A stretch of 64,000 nucleotides of DNA from a bacterium (GCA_965233585.1 CBDDTI010000746.1:640001-704000), one strand, 5' to 3'. Numbered from the stretch's first letter, positions 2,311 through 51,221 are shown. Program-made: numbers and translations. The notes: generated by a model from the letters alone, not told the origin.

Positions 2311-2499
2311 TAAGTGCTTCTGCCTTTGGCATTTACCAGCCCTTCTCTAGCAGAGGGGAATTGAAGCACTCTGTCCTTCGGTTCATTGCTCTCGTTTTCC
2401 TGACTTTTTTAGGTTGCCATTTCTCTTTTTTGAGTGCGTTGTGTTAGAATCTTTTTGGATTTTACTTTATTTATGACTAACTCTAATTAAAAGCTCTTT

Positions 2500-3042
2500 A
2501 TGACCGATGAAGAACTAAAACAGTTGGTGGCTTCTAATGCACAAGCCATTCAGGAACTCAGACCAGCAGTTGCTAGCATGGTGCGGGGCATTCAGAGGAT
2601 GGAAAACTTCATCAGCAATACTTCGGAGATTTTAGAAGGTCGTCTGTGCCGTTCTGTGGAACAGGTTATAGAAAAATATGGCTTCATTGAAATTGGAGGC
2701 ATTCGCTACGACGAAGTGGAACAAAACCTCAAAGGGAAAAATGGCATCACGGCTCAATACGATCTTGTGTTGTTCAGCAAAACAAAACATTTGCTTTTGA
2801 TAGAAGTCAAACGCAAACCTCATGTCAAAGATTTCCAACAAGTGCTTCGGCAGAAAGAGACCTTTCCTAAATTGTTTCCAAGTTATCAAGACTATACAAT
2901 CCATTGCGGTTTGGCAGGAGAAGTCTTTTATGACGAACTCATCAGTGAGGCAGAAGAAGAAGGCATTTATCTTTTTCAAGAACAAGCGGGAGAATTACAG
3001 GTCATCACGTCTGCTTCGTTGCAACCACAGCTGGAAGCGTAG
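2500..3042 (+). CDS. Coiled-coil plus PD-(D/E)XK nuclease-like protein (DUF3782-like)
   Basis: N-terminal MTDEELKQLVASNAQAIQEL coil; QYDLV...LIEVKRK nuclease-type motif. Confidence 0.6.
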   Translation: MTDEELKQLVASNAQAIQELRPAVASMVRGIQRMENFISNTSEILEGRLCRSVEQVIEKYGFIEIGGIRYDEVEQNLKGKNGITAQYDLVLFSKTKHLLLIEVKRKPHVKDFQQVLRQKETFPKLFPSYQDYTIHCGLAGEVFYDELISEAEEEGIYLFQEQAGELQVITSASLQPQLEA

Positions 3043-3080
3043 AATCCTGAACGCTGGTTTTCTTTTTTCCTAAACTACCC

Positions 3081-3719
3081 CGTCATTGTGGGCTTGACCC
3101 GCAATCTCCTTCTTTTTCCCAACAACTCCTTTTTTTGAGATTCTGAATCAAGTTCAGAATGACGGATTTGAGTCATTCCCCTGTTTTCACAAGAGGCAGG
3201 CTCTGAGTTCTCTTCGTCATCCCTGCGAAAGCAGGAATCCATGCTTGGTTTGGTGATAGATTCCGCATCAAGTGCAGAATGACAACTATTGTCATTCGTA
3301 GCGAAAGAACGTCACCCCTGTGAAAACAGGGGCAGGAATCCAGTCACGTTAGTAATCTGTGCTTGGTTTAAGATAGATTCCGCATCAAGTGCGGAATGAC
3401 GGGAGGATTGCATGTTGTCTCTTCGTCCTTGCGGGCTTGACCCGCAATCTCACTCTTGTTTTTTAAGATTCCGCATCAAGTGTGGAATGACTGGGAGAAG
3501 CACAGAATGACAGGAGGATTTTGCTGTGTTGCACTTGGTCATTCCTGCGAAAGCAGGAATCCATGCCTTGTTTAGGGTAGATTCCGCATCAAGTGCGGAA
3601 TGACTTGATTGCTGTGCAGAATGACGGGAGAACGTTTGAGATTGCGGGTCAAGCTCGCAATGACGGAAAGACTGCTGGAGATTCCCTGTCAAGTGTGGAA
3701 TGACGAAAGGACTGTCATT
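3081..3719. repeat. Mosaic array of about 13 GTCA-tagged ~26-bp palindromic units (REP/BIME/NIME-like), both orientations
   Basis: Units GTCATTCCGCACTTGATGCGGAATCT, GTCATTGCGGGCTTGACCCGCAATCT, GTCATTCCTGCGAAAGCAGGAATCC and variants, separated by short spacers. Confidence 0.9.
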
Positions 3720-3728
3720 AGAAAATAA

Positions 3729-4489
3729 GGTATTGTTAAACTATAAGTGATATGCGATATTAAGTTCATTTAATTGAATTGATAGTCATGGTGTAGCAAT
3801 GAAGTCGTGTCCTAGATGTGAAAGTGAGAAGACGGTTAAGAATGGTTTTTTATATGGTAAACCGAGGAGGCGTTGCAATGCCTGCAACTATCAATATACC
3901 AAGTCCTATCGTGGCCAAATCTCACCACAGATCAAAAGAAGAGCATTAGAGTTGTATTTGGAGGGTCTTGGTTTCAGGTCAATCGGTCGTTTGCTGAATT
4001 GTTCTCATGTTTCAGTTTATAATTGGGTCTGTAGTTTTGGCGAACAGCTCAAGGCATTAAGATAAGGACACAGACATTGAAATTATGGAAATTGATGAAA
4101 TGCACACCTACATCCAGTCAAAAAAAACTACTGCTGGCTCTGGATTGCTGTTGATAGATGTGGGAAGCAATTTATCAATTGTGTGCTTGGAAACAGAGAC
4201 TCAAAAGCCTGTAGGCATTTATGGGACAAGGTCAAGGAAACAAAACCTCTTCAGGTGATGACTGATCACTGGAAGGCTTACAAACAAGTCATTCCCAAAG
4301 AAATTCATACATGTTCCAAGGCAGAAACATACACGATAGAAGGGTATAATTCTCTCTTGAGACATTTCTTGGCAAGAATGAGAAGGAAAACCAAATGTTA
4401 CAGCAAGTCTCTTAAAGCATTACAATATTCTGTTCTTTTGTTCATGGCAAAACGGAATAATCAACTATCACTTATTACTTAACAATGCC
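3729..4489 (+). mobile_element. IS1-family insertion sequence (761 bp)
   Basis: 24-bp imperfect terminal IRs: GGTATTGTTAAACTATAAGTGATA and (reverse complement) GGCATTGTTAAGTAATAAGTGATA. Flanks GAAAATAA / AAAAATAA give a 7/8 match target duplication. InsA/InsB-like reading frames inside. Confidence 0.9.
3799..4482 (+). pseudogene. IS1-family transposase (InsA zinc finger/HTH plus InsB DDE), with an extra frameshift near 4060
   Basis: CPRC...CNAC zinc finger and HTH. The IDEMHTYIQSKK segment lies in another frame after TAA 4063-4065; slippery TCAAAAAAAAC at about 4118-4128 leads to NYCWLWIAVD...MTDHW...IEGYNSLLRH. Confidence 0.8.
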
Positions 4490-4533
4490 AAAAATAATTA
4501 TTTTTTGAAAAAGAAAATTGTTTTTGATTGAAA

Positions 4534-5757
4534 TCAAAAAAAGTGAAATACCACTTGAATTAAGTCTAATTCCCACTCGTAAAATTTGACTTTTTTGCCT
4601 TCTTCTAATTCCATTTCTAAATCAGGGGTATAGCGAATGTTGGTGCGAAGCACGAAAAATTGATTCATCGTAGGGCGAATATCCCACCCTGTTATCAAGC
4701 CCGGTTTGTTCACTGTCTCTTTCTTATCCCAAACGATTTTTCCTTCATCTCTTTCATAGTAGCTCATCTCCACTTGGTTCAGGCTCAAGCCAATATAGGG
4801 GTCAAATCCCTGATAATCAAAAATAAAGCTGTAAACCTCAAGACTTGTGTTGGTCTGTGAGATGGTATTTTTTAGACCAAAGGCGTCTTGACTATTGGTA
4901 AACTCACGATAAGAGATATTAAATTGAGTTTCTTTTTCTCTCCACCACCAACCTACTGCAAGGTCTAGTGCTAGATCACTGATAGGTTCTTGGTGTAAAA
5001 ATGGTCTCTCTTCTTCCAAATATGATGATTCACCTTGAACCCATGCGAACACTCCACCGATTCCTACTGTCAAGTTGTTGCCTGTGACTTGGATACGGGA
5101 AGGATCTGCGGCACCAGCAGTGGTTTCAAAAGAGTATTTATAACCAGCCCAGATGGATTGTTCTGGGAGCTTGACTTTGATAGCTTGGTCTCTTGTGATG
5201 TAGTAATCTATTTTCAGACGATGTGCATTAATTTTTTGGACTCCTGCTTCTAACATACCAATAGGTGTCGCCCAAACTAGTCCATAATTCCAACTTGTAC
5301 GATTTTTTGTAATCTCTGCCCCTTTTTCCCCGTCATCAGATTGGAGGTAATTCAAGGGATTCCAAGCAATGCCAACAAAAGGACTGACCCACCAAAGGCT
5401 AATTGGGATTGGATAAAACCTAAAACCTGTTTCAATGCCATGTGTGTAAGAGATACTTAAATCTCCTTCTTTTGTTTCGCTTCTTATAGGAAAAGAGACA
5501 TAAGCGTCAGCAAATCCCCAAAAGTGCAATGCACCGATAGTCAATCTTGTCTCAGAGTTGGGACGCAATGAAACCTCCTCTAACTCCCCATTTCTTAAAA
5601 CACTCGTTTCTATATCTTCAGAAAAACTCATTTGACCGATACCCAAATAGGTTTGTGCAAAAGAAAATCGTTCGTAATTTTCAGGATAGGCTTGTGCAAA
5701 TGCCATTTGTGCAGAGAAGAACATGATGACAAACAGCCATTTAGTTATTTTTAACAT
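4534..5757 (-). CDS. Exported, probably outer-membrane beta-barrel hypothetical protein
   Basis: Signal peptide (AFA-Q), alternating aromatic beta-strand pattern, terminal Phe. Confidence 0.6.
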   Translation of the reverse strand: MLKITKWLFVIMFFSAQMAFAQAYPENYERFSFAQTYLGIGQMSFSEDIETSVLRNGELEEVSLRPNSETRLTIGALHFWGFADAYVSFPIRSETKEGDLSISYTHGIETGFRFYPIPISLWWVSPFVGIAWNPLNYLQSDDGEKGAEITKNRTSWNYGLVWATPIGMLEAGVQKINAHRLKIDYYITRDQAIKVKLPEQSIWAGYKYSFETTAGAADPSRIQVTGNNLTVGIGGVFAWVQGESSYLEEERPFLHQEPISDLALDLAVGWWWREKETQFNISYREFTNSQDAFGLKNTISQTNTSLEVYSFIFDYQGFDPYIGLSLNQVEMSYYERDEGKIVWDKKETVNKPGLITGWDIRPTMNQFFVLRTNIRYTPDLEMELEEGKKVKFYEWELDLIQVVFHFF

Positions 5758-5951
5758 GATTCAATACCTCGTAAAAATGTGAATAAAAATACATCTTAAT
5801 ATTTTATTGTTTTTTTTACAAATAGAAATTTATGTTCTTTTGCAAATATTAGAAAGACCGGCTTTTCATTTAAAATTTAGAAATTGCCATTCAACATGTG
5901 CCTTGTTAGAATGGCAAACTTTCTTCAATTCATTTCTATCAAACAGTCATT

Positions 5952-6557
5952 ATGAAATTAACTTTAATCAGTGGCAGTCATCGTCAAAATTCACAAAGTT
6001 TGAAGGTTGCAAAATACTTGGAAAAGCGTGCATTGGCATTAGACTTCAAAGAAACAAAAGTCATAGATTTGTCCCAAGAAAATCTTCCTATGTGGGATGA
6101 AGAGTTTTGGCAAAATACTTCAAAGTGGCAAAAAGCATGGGGAGAAATTTCAGAGGAGCTAAAGACTTCAGATGCTTTTGCCATCATCACTCCTGAATGG
6201 TCTGGAATGGCAACCCCTGCCGTCAAGAACTTCTTACTTTTGTGTTCTTCTCAAGAGGTTGGCTATAAACCTGCTGTTTTAGCTGGCGTTTCTGCCTCCA
6301 TCGGTGGAACATATCCTATCTCAGAATTAAAACAATTCGGTTCAAAAAATAACCATCTCATTTATACTCCGGAGCATTTGGTCGTTCGCAATGCCGTGAA
6401 ACTCTTTGAAAATGAACAACCTGTTGACGAACATGAGGCGAATTTAAGAGACACCATCAACTACTCATTAAAAGTCTTGTTGAAAATGGCAGAGGCTCTC
6501 AAACAGGTGAGAACAAGCGGAGTGTTAGATTATAAAAACTTCCCTTATGGCATGTAA
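5952..6557 (+). CDS. NADPH-dependent FMN reductase family protein
   Basis: ISGSHR..SQS, TPEWSGM..PAVKN and KPA motifs. Confidence 0.85.
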   Translation: MKLTLISGSHRQNSQSLKVAKYLEKRALALDFKETKVIDLSQENLPMWDEEFWQNTSKWQKAWGEISEELKTSDAFAIITPEWSGMATPAVKNFLLLCSSQEVGYKPAVLAGVSASIGGTYPISELKQFGSKNNHLIYTPEHLVVRNAVKLFENEQPVDEHEANLRDTINYSLKVLLKMAEALKQVRTSGVLDYKNFPYGM

Positions 6558-11355: not shown

Positions 11356-14301
11356 ATGACCTCACTATCCAAAAAACTACTGATTCAAGCCCTTGATCAT
11401 GCTGATAGTCCTGTTTGCATTCTCCAAAACAAAGACTCTCAAGAAGTCATTGTCCATGCCAACAACAGTTTTTGTAAACTTCTTGGCTCTTCACTAAAAG
11501 AGGTCGTTCATAAGACGATAGACCAATACACTGTCAACATTTCTCCCGTTCCACTCTCTATTGCAGAAACAGAATCACTGATTATGAATCAGTATAATGA
11601 TTCGTTGGGGGATTTAACGCTTTGTGAAACCACACCGAATGTCATCTCTTTTTCTAATGAAGAAGGGGAGTTTCTGATTTGCCGTCTGGATTCTTCTGTT
11701 GTAGAAGAAAACAAAGCTCAAATGGTCTCACCTGCAAAAGAAGAGACCGACTTTTCTGCGTCCATTAACGTCGTGCCTCCTCTTGGTTATAATCAAGAAG
11801 CTCAAACTGAAGAAGTCCCTCTTCATGTTGAAGACCAAACCTTTACAACTACAACTGATGTTGCACCAACTGACCCTCAAGAACCACCACTTGCAACACA
11901 ACCAGAACCAGAAGAACCATTAGAAGAAGGGCTTGCACCTTCTATGTCTGCTATTCAGTTTTTACAAAACTTTCCCGAGGTTGTTTGGGAATGCGATGCA
12001 AACATGAACCTCACTTACATAGGTGGTGCATTGCAAAGTTTGACAGGCTTCACTCCTGAGTCCCTTTTATATGAACCCCTTTATTCTCGTTTTGACCAAA
12101 ACTCTCGTGATAAAATTCAGGAACAAATCACACTTCCCAACACAAACACCATTCGCTGCGGTGGTTTAATTTGCTACACTGCAGACAATTCTGAATTATG
12201 TGTAGAGTTGGTGTTTCGTGCTGCTCAAAACGCTAAGCAAGAACCTTGTTGGATTGGCATGTTGAGAGAGGATTTTTCTCTTGCTCTCATGCCTGCAGAG
12301 GAGTCTCAAGCTGATGAAGTCATTGATGATAGTCAGGCGATCATTCATGTCAATTCTGAAGGCATGATTTTCTTTGCATCAGAAAGCTCCCAAGCCATCA
12401 TCGGTTTCAATCCAGATGAGGCACCCCAAGAAATCACCCCTTATCTTGTTGATGAAACCATCAGACCTATGATTGATTTTGCCTTCATGCAACAAGAAGA
12501 CGTCCCTTTTCCAGTAGAATTGAAGTTTCAAAACACTGCACAACAGGTCTTTTTACGTTTCTATGAAGACCACCTTGAAGCCTCCTTTGATGAAGTCTTG
12601 GAAGTTCAACAAACGTCAGAAGCAGAAGCATCTGATGAGATGGATTTTAGCGATACCATTGACCCTGACATGAAGGCGAATATCCTCAGTGATAGTAAGC
12701 ACCTTGCAGGGGAAACTCTTGAGCTTGTGAGAAGTTTGGAGGTTTGTTCTTATTCTAATGAAGAGGAATTAGACCTTGAAGAGTATAGAAACTTCATTGA
12801 CGACAAGAACATTGACGAATATCGGGAAAACATCAGACTGCTTGCAAACAAAGTTCACGGTCTCAAAGGAGCGTCAGGGTTTCTCATTCCAGCGGCAAAG
12901 AAACTTTGCCATTACACAGAAGAAATCATCAAACCTCTTTCTGAATGCAAGCTAGTTCTGACGCAAAGTAATTTTCAACTTCTCAAACAATTTGTTTTTG
13001 CAATCCAAGAATCACTTGATGAGTTTGAAGAAGGGCGACCAATTAGCTGCAATGTTCACCAGTGGGAAGAGCGAATCCAGCAACAATTACATACAAGTCA
13101 AAAATACGTTGGCAACCAGATTGGGGAGTTCATTAGTTTGTTGGTGCAAGCAGGTGCAAGGAACACTGACCAACATTCTGTGCGTGCTGATGAATTTCTT
13201 TCGGTTTCTCATCAAGGCTATTTACAACTGGCTGAACAAGTGAAGCAGTTATTTTATATGATTGTTGATAACTTATCAGGCGACAGCTTGGTCAACGCAG
13301 GCACACTGTACAACGAGTTTCTTGGCACTCATCAAAAAATTATCAAAATTGCCCCAGATTTGTCCCGTTATGAAAGGCTGATTCCCAACATGGGTTCAGA
13401 ATATGACAAACAAGTTAATTTTGAGTACAACACACATGAAACACGAGCAGACCGCGAATTTTGGAATGCCATGCACGAGGTTTTTAACCACGTCTTAAAA
13501 AATGCTATCATTCATGGGTTGGAGACTCCCAGTGAACGCATTGAACAAAATAAGCCAGAATGCGGCGTTGTCAATCTTGACATTAATGATGATGCACTCA
13601 ATCTTTACATCAAAATTTCTGATGATGGGAGAGGGATTGATGTTGACCAGATTTCACAAAAGGCAGTAGAAAATCAAATCATTTCTCAAGAAGATTTGAA
13701 GAAGATGTCAAAAGAAGAGATATTGGGTTTGGTCTTTGCTCAGGGTGTGTCCACTGCAGACCAAGTAGATGATAATGCAGGACGTGGCGTGGGAATGAAT
13801 GCTGTGCAAGAAGTGATGAAGCAATTCAGGGGAAGTTGTACAATTTCTTCTGACCTTAATATTGGGACGTCTTGGAGTTTTATTTTTCCAAAAAACAATG
13901 TCTCGTTACCTTGTTTTATCGTCAAAATTGGAGAGATGCCCATTGCTATTCCTGAAAATAATGTAGAAGGCTTCCAGAAATATCAGCAAAACTACATTCA
14001 CACAATCAATCAACGCAAGGTTTATAGGAGAAATGAAGAGGTCATTCCCCTTTTGGATTCTAGGGCATTCTTTGGTGATGACAATGTCCATGAACATCAA
14101 AACATTGTGTGCCGACTGCTTATTTTGCAAGAAAATAGTAAAAAGGTGGGATTGGCGATTAATGACATTTTGCATCATGCGACACTTCCTATTTTGGCAT
14201 TGCCCAGTGAGTATCAAAATATTCCTATCTATTTGGGTGCAACTTTATATCGTGATGTCCCTGTTTTAGTTCTCAATGCCCACCAAATCTTTACCGTATA
14301 G
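11356..14301 (+). CDS. cheA: Atypical CheA-like histidine kinase: N-terminal PAS-like domains, internal Hpt, HATPase, CheW-like domain
   Basis: Hpt KVHGLKG; N box HVLKNAIIHG; DDGRG; GVST...AGRGVGM; C-terminal CheW-like domain; PAS-like segments (NFPEVVWECD..LTYI). Confidence 0.8.
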   Translation: MTSLSKKLLIQALDHADSPVCILQNKDSQEVIVHANNSFCKLLGSSLKEVVHKTIDQYTVNISPVPLSIAETESLIMNQYNDSLGDLTLCETTPNVISFSNEEGEFLICRLDSSVVEENKAQMVSPAKEETDFSASINVVPPLGYNQEAQTEEVPLHVEDQTFTTTTDVAPTDPQEPPLATQPEPEEPLEEGLAPSMSAIQFLQNFPEVVWECDANMNLTYIGGALQSLTGFTPESLLYEPLYSRFDQNSRDKIQEQITLPNTNTIRCGGLICYTADNSELCVELVFRAAQNAKQEPCWIGMLREDFSLALMPAEESQADEVIDDSQAIIHVNSEGMIFFASESSQAIIGFNPDEAPQEITPYLVDETIRPMIDFAFMQQEDVPFPVELKFQNTAQQVFLRFYEDHLEASFDEVLEVQQTSEAEASDEMDFSDTIDPDMKANILSDSKHLAGETLELVRSLEVCSYSNEEELDLEEYRNFIDDKNIDEYRENIRLLANKVHGLKGASGFLIPAAKKLCHYTEEIIKPLSECKLVLTQSNFQLLKQFVFAIQESLDEFEEGRPISCNVHQWEERIQQQLHTSQKYVGNQIGEFISLLVQAGARNTDQHSVRADEFLSVSHQGYLQLAEQVKQLFYMIVDNLSGDSLVNAGTLYNEFLGTHQKIIKIAPDLSRYERLIPNMGSEYDKQVNFEYNTHETRADREFWNAMHEVFNHVLKNAIIHGLETPSERIEQNKPECGVVNLDINDDALNLYIKISDDGRGIDVDQISQKAVENQIISQEDLKKMSKEEILGLVFAQGVSTADQVDDNAGRGVGMNAVQEVMKQFRGSCTISSDLNIGTSWSFIFPKNNVSLPCFIVKIGEMPIAIPENNVEGFQKYQQNYIHTINQRKVYRRNEEVIPLLDSRAFFGDDNVHEHQNIVCRLLILQENSKKVGLAINDILHHATLPILALPSEYQNIPIYLGATLYRDVPVLVLNAHQIFTV

Positions 14302-14305
14302 CCTC

Positions 14306-15364
14306 ATGTTTCATTTGAAATTTCGTCAATTTTTGTTTTTATTTTTCTTTTGCAGCGGCAGTGCATTCGCTCAACAGAACCTTGAAGAACAAAAAAGGAT
14401 AGAAATTTATCAAAAAAGTAGTCCTGCTGTTGTCAACATTACTTCCATTGCATTAAGTTTTGACTCATACTTTAGACCTGTTCCAACAGAATCAGGTTCG
14501 GGTTCAGGCTTCATTGTGGACAAGCAAGGGCATATTTTGACAAACTACCATGTCATCAATAAAGCACAAGAGTTGACAGTGTTGCTTTCAGATGAAAGCC
14601 AAATTGGAGCAAAAGTGATTGGAATAGACCCCAATAATGACCTCGCTATTTTAAAACTTAATCAAGTGCCCAAAAATCTGACAGTCCTGCCTTTGGGCGA
14701 TTCCTCAAAATTACAAGTTGGTCAAAATGCGATTGCACTAGGGAATCCGTTTGGTTTATTACAAACATTGACTACTGGCGTTGTGAGTGCATTAGGCAGA
14801 ACCATTCAGGCACAAAATGGACGCAAAATTGATGGAGTCATTCAAACTGATGCTGCCATTAACCCCGGTAATTCTGGCGGTCCGTTGTTGGATTCTCAAG
14901 GATATGTCATTGGAATCAATACATCTATCATTGGGCAAGGGAACATTGGAATCGGCTTTGCTGTCCCCGTGAACACAGCCAAAAGGATTATTCCAGATTT
15001 AATCAAATACGGCTATGTCCGCAGACCATGGCTTGGCATTGAAACCCTTGCCACGCAAGAACTTCAAAAACTTGGTGTTGATATTCCAGCGGGCATCTTG
15101 ATTATCAATCTTGTCAATGGTGCCCCTGCCCAAAAAGCAGGTTTGAAAGGGTCAAATCGTCAAGCAAGGGTTGGCAGATATTACATTCCATGGGGAGGGG
15201 ACATTATCACTCATGTAGATGACAAACCCATTGATTCAGTAGAGTCATTGTCCGATGCCATTGAGACTCTGTTCCTTAATCAAGAAATCACTTTAACCAT
15301 TATCAGAGACTCTAAATCGTATCAAGTGCCTGTAACACTACAAGAAAGACCCCGTCCTAGATGA
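14306..15364 (+). CDS. HtrA/DegP-family trypsin-like serine protease with PDZ domain
   Basis: GSGSGF, TNYHV, DLA, QTDAAINPGNSGGPL; signal peptide; ATG at 14306 preferred over 14276. Confidence 0.92.
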   Translation: MFHLKFRQFLFLFFFCSGSAFAQQNLEEQKRIEIYQKSSPAVVNITSIALSFDSYFRPVPTESGSGSGFIVDKQGHILTNYHVINKAQELTVLLSDESQIGAKVIGIDPNNDLAILKLNQVPKNLTVLPLGDSSKLQVGQNAIALGNPFGLLQTLTTGVVSALGRTIQAQNGRKIDGVIQTDAAINPGNSGGPLLDSQGYVIGINTSIIGQGNIGIGFAVPVNTAKRIIPDLIKYGYVRRPWLGIETLATQELQKLGVDIPAGILIINLVNGAPAQKAGLKGSNRQARVGRYYIPWGGDIITHVDDKPIDSVESLSDAIETLFLNQEITLTIIRDSKSYQVPVTLQERPRPR

Positions 15365-42071: not shown

Positions 42072-43127
42072 GTGTCTAAAATGATGCTGGGAGTTTACCT
42101 TCCCGGTGATTCAACTGCTGTCTTAAAAGAAGTTCCAATTCCCAAACCAGGTATTGGGGAGGTGTTGTTAAAAGTCAAAGCCAGTGGAATTTGTGGGTCT
42201 GATATACATTTCATTTACCACGAACACAAAGGACGCAAAGGTAAGGGAACTGCCTACTGGAATGTGATTGCTGGGCATGAACCCTGTGGTGAAATTGTTG
42301 AGCTGGGACAAGGCTGTCGTTTTTTTAAAGAAGGAGACAGGGTTGTTGTTTATCATGTCTCAGGCTGCGGATTTTGTCGTAACTGCAGAAGAGGCTTTCA
42401 AGTGTCTTGTTCAGAACCAACTAGAAAAGGATATGGTTGGCGGAGAGATGGAGGGCATGCTAATTATCTCCTTGCTGATGAGAAGGATTTAGTCAAACTT
42501 CCCAAAGAACTTTCATGGAAAGATGGTAGCTTTGTCGCATGTGGTGTTGGAACAGCCTATGAGGCAACGTTGCGAGCAAATATTTCTGGGGTGGATTGTG
42601 TCTTGGTTGTAGGTTTGGGACCTCTTGGTTCTGCTGTGTCTCTGCTTTCCAAAGGAAGAGGGGCAAAACTAGTCATAGGAGTAGATACTCAACCCCAACG
42701 AGTAGAATCTGCCAAAAATCAAGGTTTGGTTGATTTGGGGCTAGTTGTAGGAGATGAAACTTTGGAACAAATTGATGAAGTGACGAAAGGAGGTGCTTCT
42801 TGCACCATAGATTGTTCAGGCAATCCACATGGTCGTTTACTGGCTTTGCAAGCATGCCGTGAATGGGGACGCACTGTTTATGTTGGGGAAACAGGTCATG
42901 TGCAATTTGACGTCTCTGATGAACTTTTGCACAAACACCGAACAATCATTGGCTCTTGGGTCACCAGTTTAGCCAATATGGAAGATTGTTGTGACAACCT
43001 TGTCGCTTGGAATCTTCACCCAGAAGCTATTGTACAGGACGTCTTTCCTTTAGAAAAAGCCCCAGAAGCCTACCAAATGATGGCAGAAGGCAGCTGCGGA
43101 AAGATTGTAATTGACCCAGAACTCTAA
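42072..43127 (+). CDS. yphC: Zinc-binding (MDR) dehydrogenase, YphC-like
   Basis: GICGSD, GHEPCG, CGFC.NC...C; overall sequence (YLPG.ST, YGW.RDGGHA, GETG.V.F.VS, IIGSWVTSL) recalls E. coli YphC. Confidence 0.8.
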   Translation: MSKMMLGVYLPGDSTAVLKEVPIPKPGIGEVLLKVKASGICGSDIHFIYHEHKGRKGKGTAYWNVIAGHEPCGEIVELGQGCRFFKEGDRVVVYHVSGCGFCRNCRRGFQVSCSEPTRKGYGWRRDGGHANYLLADEKDLVKLPKELSWKDGSFVACGVGTAYEATLRANISGVDCVLVVGLGPLGSAVSLLSKGRGAKLVIGVDTQPQRVESAKNQGLVDLGLVVGDETLEQIDEVTKGGASCTIDCSGNPHGRLLALQACREWGRTVYVGETGHVQFDVSDELLHKHRTIIGSWVTSLANMEDCCDNLVAWNLHPEAIVQDVFPLEKAPEAYQMMAEGSCGKIVIDPEL

Positions 43128-43178
43128 TCAATCAAAGTCAAACCAAGCTCCTCCTAATCTAGCATTCTTGCTAGAAAT

Positions 43179-44222
43179 TCAAAGTTTATCTTTTTTCGTG
43201 ATGGATTCACGGCAGAACCTTTTAACATTTTCCCAAAGCTTTGCCATGCCCAGTGGCTCGTAGATCATAAAAACGATAATCAAAACGCCAAAAACTATCT
43301 GCTCAACAGAAGAAATGATGGTCGCATCAATTCCACCGTGAAACACGTTATTGCCAATGCTATTAAGCAAGATGGGGAAAAGTAGAATAAATGCCGCTCC
43401 GATGAAAGCACCGTTTATGGTTCCCAGTCCACCAAGAATTGCCATGAAAAGCACTTTGAACGAAAGTTTGATGTCAAAAGCCACCGGCTCTAAAGACTTC
43501 AGGTAAGTAAACGCAAACAACGCGCCAGCTACTCCACAATAAAAGGCACTAATTGCAAATGCCTGAAGTTTCGTTTTCAGTAGGGATATTCCCATGGATT
43601 CTGCAGCAATGTCCATATCACGGACAGCCATCCACTTTCTGCCAGTGCTTCCCCTTGCCATATTCACTGCCAAGAGAGTCAGGACTGTCACAACGACCAC
43701 AATCACCAGAAACATTTCTACTGGTGTAGTAAATGATTTTCCCAAAATCACAATATCTTGTGCGGTGATGATCCCTGATGAATCGTAGTTTTTGAACCAA
43801 CCAAATTTATCAATCATCCAGATGATAAAAAATTGGGACGCCAAGGTGGCTACCATCAAGTAAATTCCCCTCACCCTCAGGCTTGGTAATCCAAACAGAA
43901 TCCCAAAAAAAGCGGCAATCAACCCCGACAAAATCAGTGCGCCAAAAAAAGGTAAGTGAGGAACACGAAGAATCAGGTTGAAACAAGCAAAGGCGCCAGC
44001 AGCCATGAAACCAGCAGCACCCAATGCAAGTTGCCCTGTGTAGCCCATCACAATTTGTTGTCCGATTGTGGCAAGAGCTAAACACAACCAAGGTATCAAA
44101 ATGGAAGTGTACCAATAATCACTTGTGACCAAAAATGGAATCGCAAGAAACGCTAAAACCATCAAAGCACAAAAGTTTCTAATATCTCTCTTTGAATATG
44201 TCCAAAAAATATATTTTTCCAT
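43179..44222 (-). CDS. Branched-chain amino acid type ABC permease (LivM-like)
   Basis: GYTGQL.LG, LR.RG.YL..ATL, GR.W.AVRD..AAESMGI, GGLG. Confidence 0.9.
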   Translation of the reverse strand: MEKYIFWTYSKRDIRNFCALMVLAFLAIPFLVTSDYWYTSILIPWLCLALATIGQQIVMGYTGQLALGAAGFMAAGAFACFNLILRVPHLPFFGALILSGLIAAFFGILFGLPSLRVRGIYLMVATLASQFFIIWMIDKFGWFKNYDSSGIITAQDIVILGKSFTTPVEMFLVIVVVVTVLTLLAVNMARGSTGRKWMAVRDMDIAAESMGISLLKTKLQAFAISAFYCGVAGALFAFTYLKSLEPVAFDIKLSFKVLFMAILGGLGTINGAFIGAAFILLFPILLNSIGNNVFHGGIDATIISSVEQIVFGVLIIVFMIYEPLGMAKLWENVKRFCRESITKKDKL

Positions 44223-44243
44223 AGTATATTGTCTGTTTTGAAC

Positions 44244-45146
44244 TCACACTCTCTTAATGATCTTCTCACCAAATAACCCCTCAGGTCTGTACAATAAGAA
44301 GAAAATTGCTAATACGTAGGGTGCCCAGCCTTCAATCGCACCACCAAAATAAGGACCAATGTACACCTCTAGCACTTTTTCTGTTGCTCCAATGAGTAGT
44401 CCGCCAACAATCGCACCGGGTATTGAGGAAAACCCTCCTATGATTAAAACTGGCAAAGCCTTCAATGCCAGATCAACAAGTGCAAATTGAACTCCAGCCC
44501 TTGCGCCCCACATGCACCCAGCGACTAGTGCCACAACACCTGCTGAAGACCAAACTAGCAACATGATGTTTTTTAAAGGAATACCCACAGAACTTGCAGC
44601 GCCAGGGTCATCAGCAACAGCTCTCAGACCCAGACCCATTTTTGTGTACTTGAACAACAAAGCGAGTCCAATGATCATAGCAAAAGCAACCACCCCAGCA
44701 GTTAGGTCAAGTGCGCTGATAAATAACGATAAATTGTCAGCGATCCAAGGTATGGGAAAGTCACCAATGCCTAAATCCAATCTTCTAACTTCAACACCCC
44801 AAGCCGCTTGAGCTAGCCCTTCAAGCACAAATCCAAGACCAATCGTTGCCATTAACAAAGTGTCTTCACTTTGGTTAATCAGTGGTTCTAAAACCAATCT
44901 TTCAGTAAAGAAACCGACAAGAATCATCAGCACAATGGTCACGATGAATGCCAGAACAAAGGGGATCCCGAGTTCCATGAATCCGACAAAGGCAAGCACA
45001 GCAAAAAAGACCATGGCACCTTGTGCAAAGTTGAACGTTGATGAGGCTTTGTAGATCAATACAAAGCCCAGAGCAACTAATGAATACATCGTTCCAGCTA
45101 GCAACCCACCGACCACAACTTCAATAAAAAATAAGACTTCAGTCAT
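44244..45146 (-). CDS. Branched-chain amino acid type ABC permease (LivH-like)
   Basis: YSLVALGFVLIYK...NFAQG, G..LRAVADD, GG..SIPGA, RPEGLFG. Confidence 0.9.
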   Translation of the reverse strand: MTEVLFFIEVVVGGLLAGTMYSLVALGFVLIYKASSTFNFAQGAMVFFAVLAFVGFMELGIPFVLAFIVTIVLMILVGFFTERLVLEPLINQSEDTLLMATIGLGFVLEGLAQAAWGVEVRRLDLGIGDFPIPWIADNLSLFISALDLTAGVVAFAMIIGLALLFKYTKMGLGLRAVADDPGAASSVGIPLKNIMLLVWSSAGVVALVAGCMWGARAGVQFALVDLALKALPVLIIGGFSSIPGAIVGGLLIGATEKVLEVYIGPYFGGAIEGWAPYVLAIFFLLYRPEGLFGEKIIKRV

Positions 45147-45945
45147 GTGCAACTCCTAAGTATGCGTCTATGACGTCTTGGTTAGATCGGACTTCATCTG
45201 GTGGACCATCTGCAATCACTTTTCCATAGTCAAGCACGACTACGTTATCTGAAATATCCATCACGATTCCCATGTCGTGTTCAATTAACACTATGGCGGT
45301 GCCTAGTTCTTCGTTGACTTTGAGGATAAACCGACGCAGTTCCCTCTTTTCCTCAGTACTCATGCCTGCCATAGGCTCATCTAGTAAGAGTACCTCAGCT
45401 TCTGTTGCCAGCGCACGACCTAGCTCAACTTTCTTTTGCAGACCGTAGGGAAGTTTTCCAACTGGTGTATTCTGAATCCCTTCAATTTCCAGAAATTTGA
45501 CGATTTCTTCACATTTTGCCCGATTGACTTTCTCCTCATTCCTTGCCTTTGGCGTTTGGAAGGCAACCTGTAAAAAGTTAGCTTGAGTATGAAGTTTTCT
45601 ACCAACCAGAATATTATCCAGCACGGACATTCTTTTGAACAAAGCAAGATTTTGAAAAGTTCTTGAAATGCCTTTTTGTGCAATGAAATTCGGTTTGATT
45701 TTTTCCAAAACTTCGCCCTTGAACACTATCTTCCCCTCCTGAGGTCTATAAATTCCATTGATGCAATTCAGCATAGAACTTTTGCCAGCACCATTGGGAC
45801 CAATGATTGCTCTTACTTCATGTTCCAACAGACTGAAGGAAGTGTCAGTGATGGCTTTGACTCCACCAAAGCTTAGCGATATGTTTTTGACTTCTAGGAT
45901 TGGCTTGCCAATTAAAAATTTTCTTTCTCTTGTCATATCTGTCAA
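45139..45945 (-). CDS. ABC ATP-binding protein (LivG-like)
   Basis: GPNGAGKS, RTFQN, LPYG.QK.VEL, LLDEP.AG, IEHDM; ATG 45936 is an alternative start. Confidence 0.92.
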   Translation of the reverse strand: MTDMTRERKFLIGKPILEVKNISLSFGGVKAITDTSFSLLEHEVRAIIGPNGAGKSSMLNCINGIYRPQEGKIVFKGEVLEKIKPNFIAQKGISRTFQNLALFKRMSVLDNILVGRKLHTQANFLQVAFQTPKARNEEKVNRAKCEEIVKFLEIEGIQNTPVGKLPYGLQKKVELGRALATEAEVLLLDEPMAGMSTEEKRELRRFILKVNEELGTAIVLIEHDMGIVMDISDNVVVLDYGKVIADGPPDEVRSNQDVIDAYLGVAHD

Positions 45946-46739
45946 TCTCTGAGACCTTCCTCCTCTTTTGAAATGCCCAAGTACAATTCTTTGACCTTTT
46001 CATCGTTTGACAGACTTTTAGCAGTGCCATCTAACATCACTCTGCCTGTTTCAATAACGTAGCCATAGTCAGCATTTTTAAGAGCAATGTTTGTGTTCTG
46101 CTCTGCCAACAAAATTGAGACATTTTCTTTTTCATTGAGTTCTTTCACAATTCTAAAAATTTCAGCAACGAGTTGCGGTGCTAATCCCATTGACGGCTCA
46201 TCTAACAGCAGCATCCTTGGTTTTGCCATCATTGCCCTAGCGACTGCAATCATTTGCTGCTCACCACCAGAGGTATAACCTGCCTGCTTTTTTCTGCATA
46301 CTTTCAGCCGCTTGAAATAGTCATACATCTTTTCTAATTCCTGCTTAATTTCCTTCTTAGACAGCTTTCTTGAATAAGCCCCAGCAATGATGTTTTCCTC
46401 CACTGTTAAGTGTCCAAAACAACGTCTTCCTTCAAGAACTTGGACGACGCCTAAGCCGACCATCTTTGCTGGATTTAATCTTTCATCAACTTTTGTTCCG
46501 TCATACTCAATCGTACCCTTAGTCACCTTGCCTCTTTCGGTCATCAACATCGTTGAAATGGCTTTCAGTGTTGTACTTTTGCCAGCACCGTTGCCCCCCA
46601 AGAGGGCAACGATTTTTCCCTTTGGCACGTTGATAGAAACATCATGCAAAGCGACGATGACATTGTCATACGTCACCTCTATGTTTCTGACCTCAAGTAT
46701 GTTTTGTTGTTGAGAAGTCATTGAAGAAATGAAAGTCAA
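45942..46739 (-). CDS. ABC ATP-binding protein (LivF-like)
   Basis: GGNGAGKST, EGRR.F, SGGEQQM, LDEPSMGLAP, EQN; ATG 46721 is an alternative start. Confidence 0.92.
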   Translation of the reverse strand: MTFISSMTSQQQNILEVRNIEVTYDNVIVALHDVSINVPKGKIVALLGGNGAGKSTTLKAISTMLMTERGKVTKGTIEYDGTKVDERLNPAKMVGLGVVQVLEGRRCFGHLTVEENIIAGAYSRKLSKKEIKQELEKMYDYFKRLKVCRKKQAGYTSGGEQQMIAVARAMMAKPRMLLLDEPSMGLAPQLVAEIFRIVKELNEKENVSILLAEQNTNIALKNADYGYVIETGRVMLDGTAKSLSNDEKVKELYLGISKEEEGLRD

Positions 46740-47935
46740 GATTTTGTGTATTGCTCTGCTTCTTCTGACCCTTTAGTTGCATCGCCCTTGCTGTAAGAAT
46801 GTTTTCCCATTCCTGCAAGAGACCCATCTTTCACGATAAAGTATTCATCGCGAATGGGTTGGTTGTTGAAAAATCCCTCTAGGATTTCTCTTGTCCCAGC
46901 AGCATACCTTGTTTGTGCGGAAAGTGTTGTTCCTGATGTATGGGGGGTCATGCCATGGTGGGGCATGGTTCTCCAGATGTGGTCATTAGGAGCAGGTTGT
47001 GGAAACCAAACATCTCCAGCGTAGCCACTCAGTTGTCCCGATTTTAAGGCTTGTGCAACAGCTTCTTTGTTACAAATTTTGCCTCTGGCAGTATTGATTA
47101 AATAAGCACCTTTTTTCATTTGACTGATTAGGTCTGCATTAAATAAATTTTCAGTTTCAGGGTGTAAAGGGCAATTAATCGTCACAACATCACACACAGA
47201 AACCATAGATTTAACCGAGTCGTGAAAGACCAACCCTAGTTCTTGTTCAATAGACTCTGGCAGTCTGTGCCTGTCAAAATAATGCAAATGGACATCGAAA
47301 GGCTTCATTTTTCTCAATACGGATAGTCCAATACGACCTGCCGCCACTGTTCCTATGTGCATTCCTTCCACATCATAAGAACGTTTCACTGCATCAGCAA
47401 TATTCCAACCTCCAGACTTGGCAATCGCATACTGATTATGATAGTCACGGACTAAGGACAGAATCATCATCACCACATGTTCAGAGACAGAAATAGAGTT
47501 GCAATAAGTTACTTCTACAACGTCTACTTTGTGTTCCATGGCAGCTTGTAAATCCACATGGTCTGACCCAATACCTGCTGTAATTGCCAGCTTCAATTTG
47601 GGAGCTTTTTCCATTCTTTCTCTCGTCAGATAGAAGGGCCAAAAAGGCTGAGAAATGACCACATCAGCATCAACTAACTCTTTGTCTGCTTCTGAATCAG
47701 TTCCATCTTTATCCGAAGTCACTACAAGAGTATGTCCCTGCGATTCTAAAAACTTTCGCAATCCCAGTTCCCCAGAAACACAACCTAAAAGTTCCCCTGA
47801 CTTAAAATCTACATCACTTGGATTAGGCAGTGTCATTCCATCTGGATACTTCTCCAGCTTTGGCAATTCATCTAAAGGATAAGAGCTTGGCATTCCACCT
47901 TGAGGGTCATCGTACAAGACGCATAGTATTTTCAT
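46736..47935 (-). CDS. fdh: NAD-dependent (metal-independent) formate dehydrogenase
   Basis: LLGCVSGELGLR, SQPFWP, AGIGSDHVDL, NSISV.EH, AAGRIG, DRHRL, NTARG, GDVWFPQPAP..H.WR, MTPH.SG - all signature and catalytic residues of this family. Confidence 0.95.
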   Translation of the reverse strand: MKILCVLYDDPQGGMPSSYPLDELPKLEKYPDGMTLPNPSDVDFKSGELLGCVSGELGLRKFLESQGHTLVVTSDKDGTDSEADKELVDADVVISQPFWPFYLTRERMEKAPKLKLAITAGIGSDHVDLQAAMEHKVDVVEVTYCNSISVSEHVVMMILSLVRDYHNQYAIAKSGGWNIADAVKRSYDVEGMHIGTVAAGRIGLSVLRKMKPFDVHLHYFDRHRLPESIEQELGLVFHDSVKSMVSVCDVVTINCPLHPETENLFNADLISQMKKGAYLINTARGKICNKEAVAQALKSGQLSGYAGDVWFPQPAPNDHIWRTMPHHGMTPHTSGTTLSAQTRYAAGTREILEGFFNNQPIRDEYFIVKDGSLAGMGKHSYSKGDATKGSEEAEQYTKS

Positions 47936-47964
47936 TTGATTTTTCTCCTAGACATTTGATAATT

Positions 47965-48003
47965 AAAAAAAGACGGCAACGCCTCCCAATTTATGGGAAG
48001 CGT
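47965..48003 (-). terminator. Stem-loop (mRNA stabiliser or partial terminator) between SBP gene and fdh
   Basis: Minus strand ACGCTTCCCA-TAAAT-TGGGAGGCGT then TGCCGTC and T7. Confidence 0.55.
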
Positions 48004-48045
48004 CAATGTGACCACATTGTGCTGGTCAACTTGTTTGTTAAAACT

Positions 48046-49383
48046 TTATCCACACTTCTTCGGTGTGATGTTGTTCTCTCTGGCAAATTTTGCGGCTGAT
48101 TGCTCAACCAAACCTCTGATGTAAGCAGGGTCAAGAGGGGCTTCCCAACCTGTAATCTGCTTGAACTGCTTCCCGTCCCATTGCATGACGGCAAACTTAC
48201 CAGCTCCCTCATGGTTTTCACACGAGATTGCAAAAGGGGCAACCATTCCTTTAATGCCAATTTCTGCAAGACGACTTTCCGTCATGTTGAGTGCTTCATA
48301 ACCGTCTCTAAATTCTGCACCTGTGACTGCTTTACCTTCTTTGTTATGTATCCTTTGTGCGTTTTTCAGGGCTTCTATCCACATCACAGCGGCACCTAAT
48401 CCACGGTTCCAGTAAACTGAACCAAGACGACTCTCATCTGCTAGATTCCCTTTGCCTGCACCATACACTTGGTCTTTAATTTTTTTCACCAAAGGAAAGT
48501 TGTCTCCGGGCAAAGCATTGGCAACGGCATAAGTCCCAACTGCAGATTTGCCAGCAGGATACATATCTTCTTCTGCTGCACCAAAAGTGACGTAAATCAT
48601 GCGATCTCTTGGGAAACCAACACGAGCGGCATTGGTCATTGCAGTAGAGTTCATACCTGAACCTGCTCCCCAGAACGTAACCCAATCAGGTCGTTCTCTT
48701 CTGATTTGCAACCATTGAGATTGCTGTTCTAGTCCAGGTGGAGGAATAGAAATTTCAACCAATTTGACGCCCCAATCAGAAGTGATTTTTCTCATGGCTG
48801 GCAAAGGTTCGCGACCGTAGGCAGAATCAATGTGAAGGTGGACAATTTTTTTGCCTTTCATCTTATCCACTCCTCCTTCAATTTCAGCCATGAACTTTAA
48901 CTTGACTGCAATTTGAGACCAGTAATGACTAGCGGCATTAAAAACCCAAGGCCAGACCCTGCCGTCAGCGCCATCTGTCCTACCATATCCGTATTGTGCC
49001 AAAACGACATTGTCCTCTGCCATACGATTGATGACAGCATAAGCCCCCGGTGTGCCAAGAGTGTCAAAGACCACAATTCTTTGTCCATCTTTTTCAAGCA
49101 AACGTTGATAGCATTCAACTGTCTTGACAGCGTTGTACTCAGTTTCACATTCCTGCCATGTGAGCATCACACCATTGACTCCACCATTCATGTTGATGTA
49201 GTTCATGTAGTCTATTTGGGCACCATAATACCCAGTCCCCATCGCTGAATAAGGACCAACCCGACTACTGGCTATTGGGAAGTATTGCACCTCTTCACCA
49301 AAGGTGACGGGTGTTAATACGAAAGCAGGACACCCTACCATCGCAAGCATTGAAAACAGGTAACGAAAAGATCTTTTAATCAT
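48046..49383 (-). CDS. ABC substrate-binding protein, type I periplasmic (Liv-like) fold
   Basis: Signal peptide; R.GPY, GGVNGV, ECETEYN, DG.V.PW.F, DSAYGREP, EQQSQW.QIRR, WNRG; strong RBS AAGGAG. Confidence 0.9.
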   Translation of the reverse strand: MIKRSFRYLFSMLAMVGCPAFVLTPVTFGEEVQYFPIASSRVGPYSAMGTGYYGAQIDYMNYINMNGGVNGVMLTWQECETEYNAVKTVECYQRLLEKDGQRIVVFDTLGTPGAYAVINRMAEDNVVLAQYGYGRTDGADGRVWPWVFNAASHYWSQIAVKLKFMAEIEGGVDKMKGKKIVHLHIDSAYGREPLPAMRKITSDWGVKLVEISIPPPGLEQQSQWLQIRRERPDWVTFWGAGSGMNSTAMTNAARVGFPRDRMIYVTFGAAEEDMYPAGKSAVGTYAVANALPGDNFPLVKKIKDQVYGAGKGNLADESRLGSVYWNRGLGAAVMWIEALKNAQRIHNKEGKAVTGAEFRDGYEALNMTESRLAEIGIKGMVAPFAISCENHEGAGKFAVMQWDGKQFKQITGWEAPLDPAYIRGLVEQSAAKFARENNITPKKCG

Positions 49384-49438
49384 GGTCTAACTCCTTAAAG
49401 TATGTTTGAAAGACGACGCAATCCACTGGTTTTTTCAT
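49376..49438 (-). CDS. Putative 20-aa leader peptide MKKPVDCVVFQTYFKELDHD overlapping the SBP start
   Basis: AGGAG RBS 10 nt upstream of its ATG; it runs across the SBP RBS and stops just after the SBP ATG. Confidence 0.3.
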   Translation of the reverse strand: MKKPVDCVVFQTYFKELDHD

Positions 49439-49477
49439 ATTTATTTGCTCCTATAAATGATGATTTTGATGTGGCAA

Positions 49478-49935
49478 CCACTGCCATTCTGTTTTTTCAT
49501 ATTCACTCTCTCCCCAGTCAAGAATCAAGTCCATGAAAAAAACTGGGTGCAGTCTGACACTCATCTTGAAACCTGTCAAGGTTTTTTTAAGCCCAAGAAC
49601 AAATCAAGTTTTTTTAAGTTCAAGAACAGAAGTGCCAAGAGACCACTGCCTCCATTTTGTTTTTCCACACGCACCCCCTCCCTAGTCAAGAATCAAGTCT
49701 ATGAAAAAAACTGGGCGTAGTCTGACACTCATCTTGAAACCTGTCAAGGTTTTTTTAAGCCCAAGAACAAATCAAGTTTTTTCAAGTTCAAGAACAGAAG
49801 TGCCAAGAGACCACTGCCTCCATTTTGTTTTTCCACACGCACTCTTTCCCTAGTCAAGAATCAAGTCCATGAAAAAAACTGGGTGCAGTCTGACACTTAT
49901 CTCAAAACCTGTCAAGTTTTTTTTAAGCCCAAGAA
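49478..49935. repeat. Tandem repeat, 168-bp period, about 2.7 copies
   Basis: AGTCAAGAATCAAGT at 49516, 49684, 49852; TGTCAAG at 49574, 49742, 49910; copies nearly identical. Confidence 0.95.
49551..49915 (-). promoter_or_regulatory. Three putative sigma70 promoters (49551-49579, 49719-49747, 49887-49915) facing the ABC-fdh operon
   Basis: Each reads on the minus strand: A-tract, TTGACA, N17 ending TGT, CAGACT, GC-rich discriminator. Confidence 0.6.
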
Positions 49936-50129
49936 TAAAAGGGGGTAAGAAGTGGGTTTGATATAGATGAGAAGATTGTTGGTGTTATTGGTAAAAACAA
50001 GAGAGGCACTAGCTTTTGCAAGGAGATACCCAAAATCTCTGAACATATTTTTTTGGATTATTGACTTGACAATGATTTCTAAATGTTGAAAATATAGCGT
50101 TTTTGTCTCACTCTCAACTAAAGGTTATT

Positions 50130-51221
50130 ATGAAAAGAAGAGATTTTTTGAAAAAGGCAGGTGTGGGGTCTGCTGTGGCAGGTGTGGCTCTTTCTGCAGC
50201 TCCTGCTGTTCATGCCAAAAAAACACGTCGTTGGAAAATGGTGACGACTTGGCCTAAAAACTTTCCAGGTCTAGGCACAGGTGCAAACCACCTTGCAAAG
50301 CTCATTACGGAGCTGACGGGTGGTGAAATTAAGGTCAAAGTTTATGGAGCAGGTGAGCTTGTTCCCGCACTTGGTATCTTTGACGCTGTTTCGCAAGGGA
50401 CTGCACAAATGGGGCATGGTGCTTCTTACTATTGGAAGGGCAAGCACCCTGCGACACAGTTTTTTGCAACAGTCCCTTTCGGTCTAAATGCTGATGAAAT
50501 GATTGGCTGGATCAAGCACGGCGGTGCTCAAAAACTCTGGGACGAACTTTACGCTGATTTTAATTTGAAACCTTTTGCAGTAGGTAACACAGGCGTTCAA
50601 ATGGGAGGCTGGTTTAATAAAGAAATCAACTCTGTTTCAGATTATAAGGGTTTGAAGATGCGCATGCCTGGACTTGGTGGGGAAGTCATCAAAAGAGCTG
50701 GAGCCACTGTTGTTTTATTGCCCGGTGGTGAACTGTTTCAAGCATTACAATCGGGAACGATAGATGCGACAGAATGGGTCGGACCTTATAATGATCTGGC
50801 TTTTGGGTTTCATAAAGCTGCAAAGTATTATTATTGGCCCGGGTGGCATGAACCGGGAACTGTGCTTGAAGCATTTGTGAACCGTGAAGCATACGAAGAC
50901 CTTCCCAAAAATCTGCAAGCAATCGTTTCTGCTGCATGTGATTCTGCTTACTTAGACATGTTTGCAGACTTCACAGCACGTAACAATTCCTCTCTTGAGA
51001 CGCTCGTTAATAAACATGGCGTGCAACTCAGAGAATTTTCTGACGATATTCTTAAAACAATGGGAGAACTCAGTAGAGATGTGGTGGCAGAAGCTGGAGA
51101 ATATGACTCACTTAGTAAAAAAGTCTATGACTCTTTTGCTAAGTTTCAAGTGGATTCTGTCGCATGGAATCGCCTTGGGGATCAAGGATTTTCCATAGCT
51201 CGTGCTTTGACATACATCTGA
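50130..51221 (+). CDS. dctP: TRAP substrate-binding protein (TakP/2-oxoacid-binding-like) with Tat signal
   Basis: KRRDFLKK Tat motif; WKMVTTWPK, SYYW.GK, GNTG.QMGGWF, LKMRMPGLGG, EWVGPY.D. Confidence 0.9.
   Translation: MKRRDFLKKAGVGSAVAGVALSAAPAVHAKKTRRWKMVTTWPKNFPGLGTGANHLAKLITELTGGEIKVKVYGAGELVPALGIFDAVSQGTAQMGHGASYYWKGKHPATQFFATVPFGLNADEMIGWIKHGGAQKLWDELYADFNLKPFAVGNTGVQMGGWFNKEINSVSDYKGLKMRMPGLGGEVIKRAGATVVLLPGGELFQALQSGTIDATEWVGPYNDLAFGFHKAAKYYYWPGWHEPGTVLEAFVNREAYEDLPKNLQAIVSAACDSAYLDMFADFTARNNSSLETLVNKHGVQLREFSDDILKTMGELSRDVVAEAGEYDSLSKKVYDSFAKFQVDSVAWNRLGDQGFSIARALTYI

Follow-up and report, generated by a model that had tools for sequence, protein, structure and literature searches.

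A candidate formate import-and-oxidation operon and the marine ABC transporter family to which it belongs

Channels and exchangers are the generally accepted routes of formate across bacterial membranes, and the locus described here raises the question of whether an ATP-driven pump may also take it up. In a 64,000-nucleotide stretch of bacterial DNA (GCA_965233585.1 CBDDTI010000746.1:640001-704000, analyzed as a whole and called the window below), calling of open reading frames identified six on the minus strand, running from 49383 to 43179, in which a gene for a formate dehydrogenase (FDH) stands among those for the substrate-binding protein (SBP), ATPases, and permeases of an ATP-binding cassette (ABC) transporter. 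We consider it likely, on the strength of the gene products and their comparative setting, that this operon imports formate and oxidizes it at once, as a self-contained uptake and oxidation module. We also propose, with a little less assurance, that it is the first example to be recognized of a high-affinity ABC importer family for formate, both widespread and extremely conserved, that is used by SAR11, roseobacters, and marine gammaproteobacteria and would in some hosts be controlled through sigma-54 by a formate-sensing kinase. The operon and the elements around it are as follows.

48046..49383, minus strand: SBP gene, type I periplasmic binding protein of 445 amino acids (Peripla_BP_6), the proposed formate receptor
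47977..48005, minus strand: terminator-like hairpin (12 pairs, 6 of them G-C) and T run, directly 3' of the SBP stop codon
46736..47935, minus strand: fdh, metal-free NAD-dependent FDH of 399 amino acids (NF005750 equivalog)
45942..46721, minus strand: livF-like ATPase gene (ABC_tran), conserved ATG at 46721, 14 nucleotides past the fdh stop codon
45139..45936, minus strand: livG-like ATPase gene with a BCA_ABC_TP_C tail, ATG at 45936 set by orthologue alignment
44244..45146, minus strand: livH-like permease gene (BPD_transp_2, 100 bits), ATG at 45146
43179..44222, minus strand: livM-like permease gene (BPD_transp_2, 112.2 bits), last gene of the operon
49484..49939, unstranded: tandem repeat of a 168-bp unit (2.7 copies), on the 5' side of the SBP gene

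The product of fdh has the D-2-hydroxyacid dehydrogenase fold and is, judged by its sequence, a true NAD-dependent formate dehydrogenase (EC 1.17.1.9). It passes the NCBIfam equivalog NF005750 with 672.7 bits against a cut-off of 329 (residues 2-384), and its best sequence match in the PDB is the NAD-dependent FDH 2GSD (E 7.8e-196, residues 2-398). The motifs that a first-pass annotation of this DNA had listed as intact, NSISV, NTARG, PQP, TPH, and DRHRL, were all present in the translation aligned to 2GSD; we take the Asn, Arg, Gln, and His of the first four to be catalytic and the Asp of DRHRL to select NAD. The enzymes of Moraxella and Pseudomonas sp. 101 (2GSD and 2NAC/2NAD) match over the full length, with E values of about 1e-196 to 1e-192, and carry the same catalytic motifs; the only difference is the setting of the window gene in a transporter operon.

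The remaining genes would make up an importer of the HAAT family (TC 3.A.1.4 type), going by the fold of the SBP, the two permeases, and the two ATPases. The SBP matches Peripla_BP_6 (PF13458) with 127.9 bits against a cut-off of 31.7, and no NCBIfam family matched it; its AF2 model (mean confidence, pLDDT, 90.7) has a two-lobed α/β fold, the structural neighbors of which include Liv, Urt, and AmiC structures, and residues 1-28 score low, consistent with a signal peptide. Against the NCBIfam equivalogs, the window ATPases reached 201.6 bits for LivF (cut-off 441) and 255 for LivG (362), and the permeases 85.5 for LivH (379) and 97.3 for LivM (366). The Urt models also scored below their cut-offs: UrtE 193.7 bits (285.8), UrtD 206.2 (304.1), UrtB 75.8 (250.3), and UrtC 66 (296.2). 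These scores argue against a UrtABCDE system and, together with an SBP unlike LivJ/K, against a LivJHMGF system. The solved relatives with a defined ligand (Liv, Urt, and AmiC) are at most 18% identical to the SBP, the LivJ/K structures 13-16%. Its only close solved relative is 4RU0, an uncharacterized protein from the Pseudomonas fluorescens group whose title names no ligand (phmmer E 1.6e-100; Foldseek E 2e-50, TM score 0.86-0.92); the two have a distinctive fold of about 445 residues in common, and their identity is only about 40%. With the HAAT importers LivJ/K-HMGF, UrtABCDE, and those of SAR11_1346 and SAR11_1361, the window operon shares a Peripla_BP_6 SBP, a BPD_transp_2 pair, and LivG/LivF-type ATPases, and SBP-dependent, ATP-driven import is expected of all of them; it differs in the gene order of its clade, SBP-F-G-H-M (letters for the liv-like genes), into which fdh is inserted in the window. 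In source databases the SBP goes by a generic name or is labeled [quoted passage not shown], and in marine data single clusters at 90% identity hold 1349 and 1856 member sequences.

The case for formate rests chiefly on what accompanies this transporter elsewhere. One genome per prokaryote species was scanned for relatives of the SBP, and the best 80 of 342, which are 83-92% identical to it across bacterial classes, were kept for locus counts; represented among them are Pelagibacteraceae, Rhodobacteraceae/Paracoccaceae, gammaproteobacterial and other Pseudomonadota metagenome-assembled genomes (MAGs), Parvibaculaceae, Thalassobaculaceae, and others. The order SBP-F-G-H-M was kept in all 80 loci, with the other four proteins 75-93% identical to those of the window. 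The loci fall into the following classes by neighbor, the last of which, having too short an upstream flank, could not be scored, leaving 70 with usable flanks.

34 loci: NAD-dependent FDH, divergent and just upstream, 76-79% identical to the window FDH; all SAR11
9 loci: molybdenum (Mo)-dependent FDH (FdsA/FdsB) with a NuoF/NuoE-like partner, in three layouts
8 loci: formate-tetrahydrofolate (THF) ligase, upstream; all SAR11
7 loci: two-component system only
12 loci: none of the formate enzymes and no sensor
10 loci: upstream flank shorter than 1 kb

A formate-converting enzyme thus adjoins the transporter in 51 of the 70. The neighboring FdsA passes TIGR01591 (752.6 bits, cut-off 666) and the neighboring ligase NF010030 (881 bits, cut-off 652). 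That fdh itself should be a conserved neighbor, the point on which the first-pass annotation had proposed to test its idea, failed when taken literally, as no relative has fdh between the SBP gene and livF (0/80), which makes this architecture unique to the window in the sample; the expectation holds in the broader form of a formate enzyme beside the transporter.

Counting the window, six or more arrangements link formate enzymes with this clade. In SAR11 either the NAD-dependent FDH gene is divergent from the SBP gene or the ligase gene lies upstream; the fds genes are found as folD-fdsA-fdsGB divergent from the operon (locus L001), downstream on the same strand (L013, L022, and L042), or upstream on the same strand (five roseobacter loci). 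Of the loci that form the SAR11 subclade in the SBP tree, all 42 whose flanks could be scored have FDH or ligase. Among five genomes whose locus has no formate enzyme, four encode both an FdsA-type FDH (59-62% identical) and formate-THF ligase at other sites; the remaining genome is partial, at 1 Mb. Scanning of 52 flanking proteins from 14 related loci revealed only formate enzymes, folD, regulators, and unrelated genes, with no recurrent hydrolase, monooxygenase, demethylase, or CoA-transferase. None of the 52 has an AMP-binding domain, at odds with the first-pass statement that operons with this type of SBP often carry an acyl-CoA ligase.

Several observations on these loci stand apart from the counts. 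Locus L001, from one MAG, apparently holds a full set: folD-fdsA-fdsGB (794-6194) divergent from SBP-F-G-H-M, followed by a sigma-54 regulator and a formate-type kinase (12489-15327). The FdsA-type gene in the gammaproteobacterial genome of L002 (G061:C1:3067439-3069932) consists of two adjoining matches in different frames and may be frameshifted. Of the 34 FDH-linked SAR11 loci, 33 encode an HPP-family membrane protein (PF04982) beside the NAD-dependent FDH, and of the eight ligase-linked ones none does; examples of the gene are L003 12125-12589, L014 6326-6805, and L103 5310-5816. This protein might give formate a second route, of channel type. In one alphaproteobacterial clade, pntA/pntB, encoding an NAD(P) transhydrogenase, lie directly 3' of the transporter (L037 12195-15111, checked with Pfam; L059 has the same layout of reading frames), and in one metagenome contig they lie directly 3' of an FDH gene (L164 7208-10008), a placement that hints at a route from formate to NADPH.

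Phylogenies suggest that these associations arose more than once. In the SBP tree, the marine clade (81 rows) is split from a sister clade by a long, fully supported branch, and the window SBP pairs with that of a gammaproteobacterial MAG (SH-aLRT support 88) and lies apart from the SAR11 sequences, whose 46 rows make up a clade with support 100. The FDH tree unites the 34 SBP-linked enzymes of SAR11 in a single clade (97); the window FDH belongs to a separate set of 12 rows (98), which it shares with metagenome FDHs that have 82-85% identity to it and no transporter alongside. Both trees place the window outside the SAR11 clades, and fdh therefore met the transporter at least twice; the Mo-dependent FDH came to lie beside it in three layouts, and the ligase likewise became a neighbor. 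For a view from the enzyme's side, 80 metagenome loci with the closest FDHs (78-85% identical to that of the window) were compared; 25 of them have the ligase and 8 an HPP-family membrane protein. Some FDHs 82-83% identical to that of the window are encoded among archaeal-type genes (L098 2599-8814; L108/L109 4936-8516), including those for a TrmB regulator, an STT3 oligosaccharyltransferase, an RFC-like AAA protein, and UvdE, so marine plankton of different domains seem to have this type of FDH in common.

A further line of evidence comes from a sensor. Seven related loci, all but one lacking a linked formate enzyme, carry genes for a histidine kinase and a response regulator of sigma-54 type next to the operon. 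The periplasmic part of the kinase matches sCache_3_3 and, partially, Cache_3-Cache_2 in Pfam, the signature by which a 2025 PNAS paper (PMC11804620) defines a formate-specific family of sensor domains. That paper reports binding constants and two formate-bound structures (8PY0 and 8PY1), names a key Arg, gives two Thr as 98-99% conserved, and places these domains almost only in chemoreceptors. The only PDB sequence matches of the kinase sensor part are 8PY0 (E 3.3e-6) and 8PY1 (E 1.4e-4), and all seven kinases keep the Arg, the Thr at +3, and the Thr at +16 (R142, T145, and T158 of PacF) as well as the pocket Tyr. By these features the kinases beside the transporter would be formate-specific sCache sensors; they have the Pfam signature and the Arg/Thr/Thr/Tyr set in common with PacF, Atu0526, and 8PY0/8PY1, and they differ in that the domain sits in histidine kinases paired with sigma-54 regulators. 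A sigma-54-type element, TGGCAY-N5-TTGC, was found 275-380 nucleotides upstream of the SBP start in all five loci in which the two-component system lies downstream and was absent from the three in which it lies upstream.

The genome of the host itself agrees with a dedicated role. Its assembly (12 Mb in 747 contigs, 92.5% complete) yielded no FNT channel (FocA), HPP protein, formate-THF ligase, or FdsA-type Mo-dependent FDH; the FdsA query that was negative here matched in four of five other genomes. In this genome, no formate route and no formate enzyme other than those of the window operon were detected. The operon also looks acquired: NAD-dependent FDH was found in none of 60 relatives of the host, and the SBP that these relatives do have is just 35-48% identical and stands in the gene order G-H-M-SBP-F; the flanks fetched around it contained neither formate nor sfn genes. 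Formate import, which the first-pass annotation had proposed from the operon alone, thus gains comparative support from the neighbors, the separate recruitment of fdh in the window and in SAR11, the sensor signature, and a host genome with no other formate enzyme or channel; the same support would also be compatible with a close precursor of formate.

The order SBP-fdh-livF-livG-livH-livM, as first read, was borne out by the reading frames. Once the start codons of livF, livG, and livH had been placed by orthologue alignment, the junctions, previously said to abut or overlap, were a 14-nucleotide gap between fdh and livF, a 5-nucleotide gap between livF and livG, an 8-nucleotide overlap of livG and livH, in which the livH ATG overlaps the livG stop codon at ATGACTGA, and a 21-nucleotide gap between livH and livM. 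The spacer between the SBP gene and fdh is longer, at 110 nucleotides, and contains the 12-bp hairpin followed by the T run (48005..47977), with fdh immediately behind it. A strong hairpin 3' of the SBP stop codon was found in 17 of 17 folded spacers (the window and 16 relatives). Hairpins behind binding-protein genes are the usual device for producing a surplus of binding protein, and this one is likely an attenuator that keeps the SBP in excess over the downstream gene products. The fdh leader, AGGAGAAAAATCAA (47936-47965), resembles the livF leader of relatives, which reads AGAGAAAAATCA in L001 (8470-8498), and livF of the window is left with a 14-nucleotide leader and no obvious ribosome-binding site; it looks as if fdh had been slotted between livF and livF's own leader.

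Beyond the operon, unrelated TRAP systems flank it on both sides. livM is convergent with the Zn-alcohol dehydrogenase gene of one of these TRAP operons. The tandem repeat occupies part of the 720 bp that separate the SBP gene from dctP, a divergent TRAP gene, and has a period of 168, 92% matches, and a score of 786 in Tandem Repeats Finder; each 168-bp copy holds a TTGACA-like and a TGGCAC-like word, and no further occurrence of the unit was found in the 12-Mb assembly. The repeat is probably situated within the operon's promoter or regulatory region. A search of 42900-50300 against Rfam gave no match at E 0.1 or better.

We propose the following mechanism. A periplasmic SBP, made in excess owing to the hairpin behind its gene, would capture formate at low concentration and deliver it to the LivH/LivM-type permease pair, driven by the LivG/LivF-type ATPases. 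A read-through transcript would carry fdh and the four genes of the membrane complex together, and the cytoplasmic NAD-dependent FDH would oxidize the imported formate to CO2 and NADH, holding internal formate low. In other hosts the transporter would feed a Mo-dependent FDH or formate-THF ligase, and in some a formate-sensing kinase would switch it on through sigma-54. The window would then represent the system reduced to a transferable cassette, import plus oxidation, for a host with no other formate enzyme.

Several observations count against this proposal. By textbook stoichiometry, an ABC importer spends about 2 ATP per solute and one NADH returns about 2.5 ATP; the gain in energy would be small, and the benefit would therefore have to be reductant or one-carbon (C1) units. 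Expression of fdh could be uncoupled from that of the SBP gene by the intervening hairpin. From the side of the enzyme the link is the exception, since the transporter is missing from the vicinity of the closest FDHs in all 80 metagenome loci, and from the side of the transporter the 12 usable loci in the class with no formate enzyme or sensor show none inside the fetched flanks. In all seven kinases, the Phe that limits the pocket of the solved formate sensors is replaced by Tyr. The window itself yielded no formate-type kinase, and a search upstream of its SBP gene for the sigma-54 motif with at most one mismatch found nothing. Lastly, the locus is contained in four DNA-type runs of one study, and no RNA run is among the listed holders.

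The main rival to formate import is a precursor: the transporter would take up some other very small compound that yields formate, with the formate enzymes only finishing the pathway. Formamide, another C1 or methylated compound, methanesulfonate, dimethylsulfone, glyoxylate, and oxalate are candidates, and we regard this as unlikely, if worth serious attention. One argument for it comes from the sister clade of the SBP tree, found on Rhizobium and Agrobacterium plasmids, whose SBP is about 41% identical and whose genes, in the order G-H-M-SBP-F, sit between msuE-sfnG and sfnB in sulfur-scavenging operons (two inspected of 146 plasmid records: L186 4194-12503 and L187 4152-12406). From this setting, the substrate of the sister clade would be dimethylsulfone or another small organosulfur compound like it, and the SBP subfamily may, by analogy, be devoted to very small solutes, which would suit formate as well. 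Moreover, C1 oxidation in SAR11 ends with FDH and formate-THF ligase (PMC3160333), so their adjacency there could point to another C1 compound, and a thiamine pyrophosphate enzyme and an amidase are encoded near FDH in one metagenome locus (L102). Homologues of SfnG, MsuE, and SfnB, however, occur in none of the loci of the formate-linked clade, in which 74 positions are fixed that differ in the sister clade; the differences of the window from 4RU0 and the sister clade are the gene order and the sulfur-scavenging neighbors, the latter being features of the sister clade. No enzyme of the kinds that would release formate from a precursor recurs among the 52 flanking proteins, the linked sensor keeps its formate-specific residues, and the window operon holds an SBP, an FDH, and ABC parts only. 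The adjacent Zn-dehydrogenase was considered as a formaldehyde dehydrogenase and rejected, since its scores fall far short of the models for that enzyme and its gene is part of the neighboring TRAP operon.

Alternatively, this could be an ordinary transporter for branched-chain or general amino acids, into which fdh was inserted by chance transfer and in which it only detoxifies internally made formate. The database labels say as much, the absence of NAD-dependent FDH from the 60 host relatives makes it probable that the gene was acquired, and the transporter is missing from the 80 closest FDH loci. We nevertheless think this very improbable: the four ABC parts fall far below the LivF/G/H/M and Urt cut-offs, the SBP has no NCBIfam family and resembles every solved amino acid binder at 18% identity or less, and it differs in length and C-terminus from the two Liv-type SBPs characterized in Pelagibacter HTCC1062. 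In particular, identity with SAR11_1346 or SAR11_1361 was rejected on their shorter synthetic-gene entries (1205 and 1247 characters) and, by eye, different C-termini, and identity with the unexpressed SAR11_1290 of the Clifton study on the peer-review file, which gives a TRAP SBP with ethanolamine predicted. Chance also fails to explain three unrelated formate enzymes and a formate-type sensor in six arrangements. It is likewise hardly credible that the SBP mainly signals, or that the pump handles another small formate-like anion such as nitrite or bicarbonate. HPP proteins, a family linked to nitrite transport, do accompany the SAR11 FDH loci, and formate and nitrite share FNT-family channels; a complete importer with two permeases and two ATPases is nonetheless always present, at the 75-93% identity given above, and no enzyme using nitrite or carbonate recurs in the flanks. 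Formate import therefore remains the reading that we prefer.

Compared with the FocA/FNT channels, the window proteins have the same proposed role, moving formate across the inner membrane; they are unrelated to those channels, would act by primary active transport instead of as a channel, and occur in a host with no FNT gene. In the literature searched, that on SAR11 included, no formate ABC importer is described. A survey of SBPs from Pelagibacter HTCC1062 (PMC11485210) does not mention formate in its main text and readable supplements, its figures and largest supplement falling outside this check, and within the same parts it does not cover the SBP clade of the window. Since the SBP is annotated as an amino acid or generic binding protein, current metabolic reconstructions would mis-assign the transporter.

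If formate is indeed the ligand, an ATP-driven, SBP-dependent importer would be a new route for this compound, suited to very low concentrations, and would combine with FDH in a compact two-function cassette for engineering formate use. Formate at nanomolar levels would then be a routinely harvested marine source of reductant or C1 units, and would join the small set of substrates that are actively scavenged by the most numerous bacteria of the ocean.

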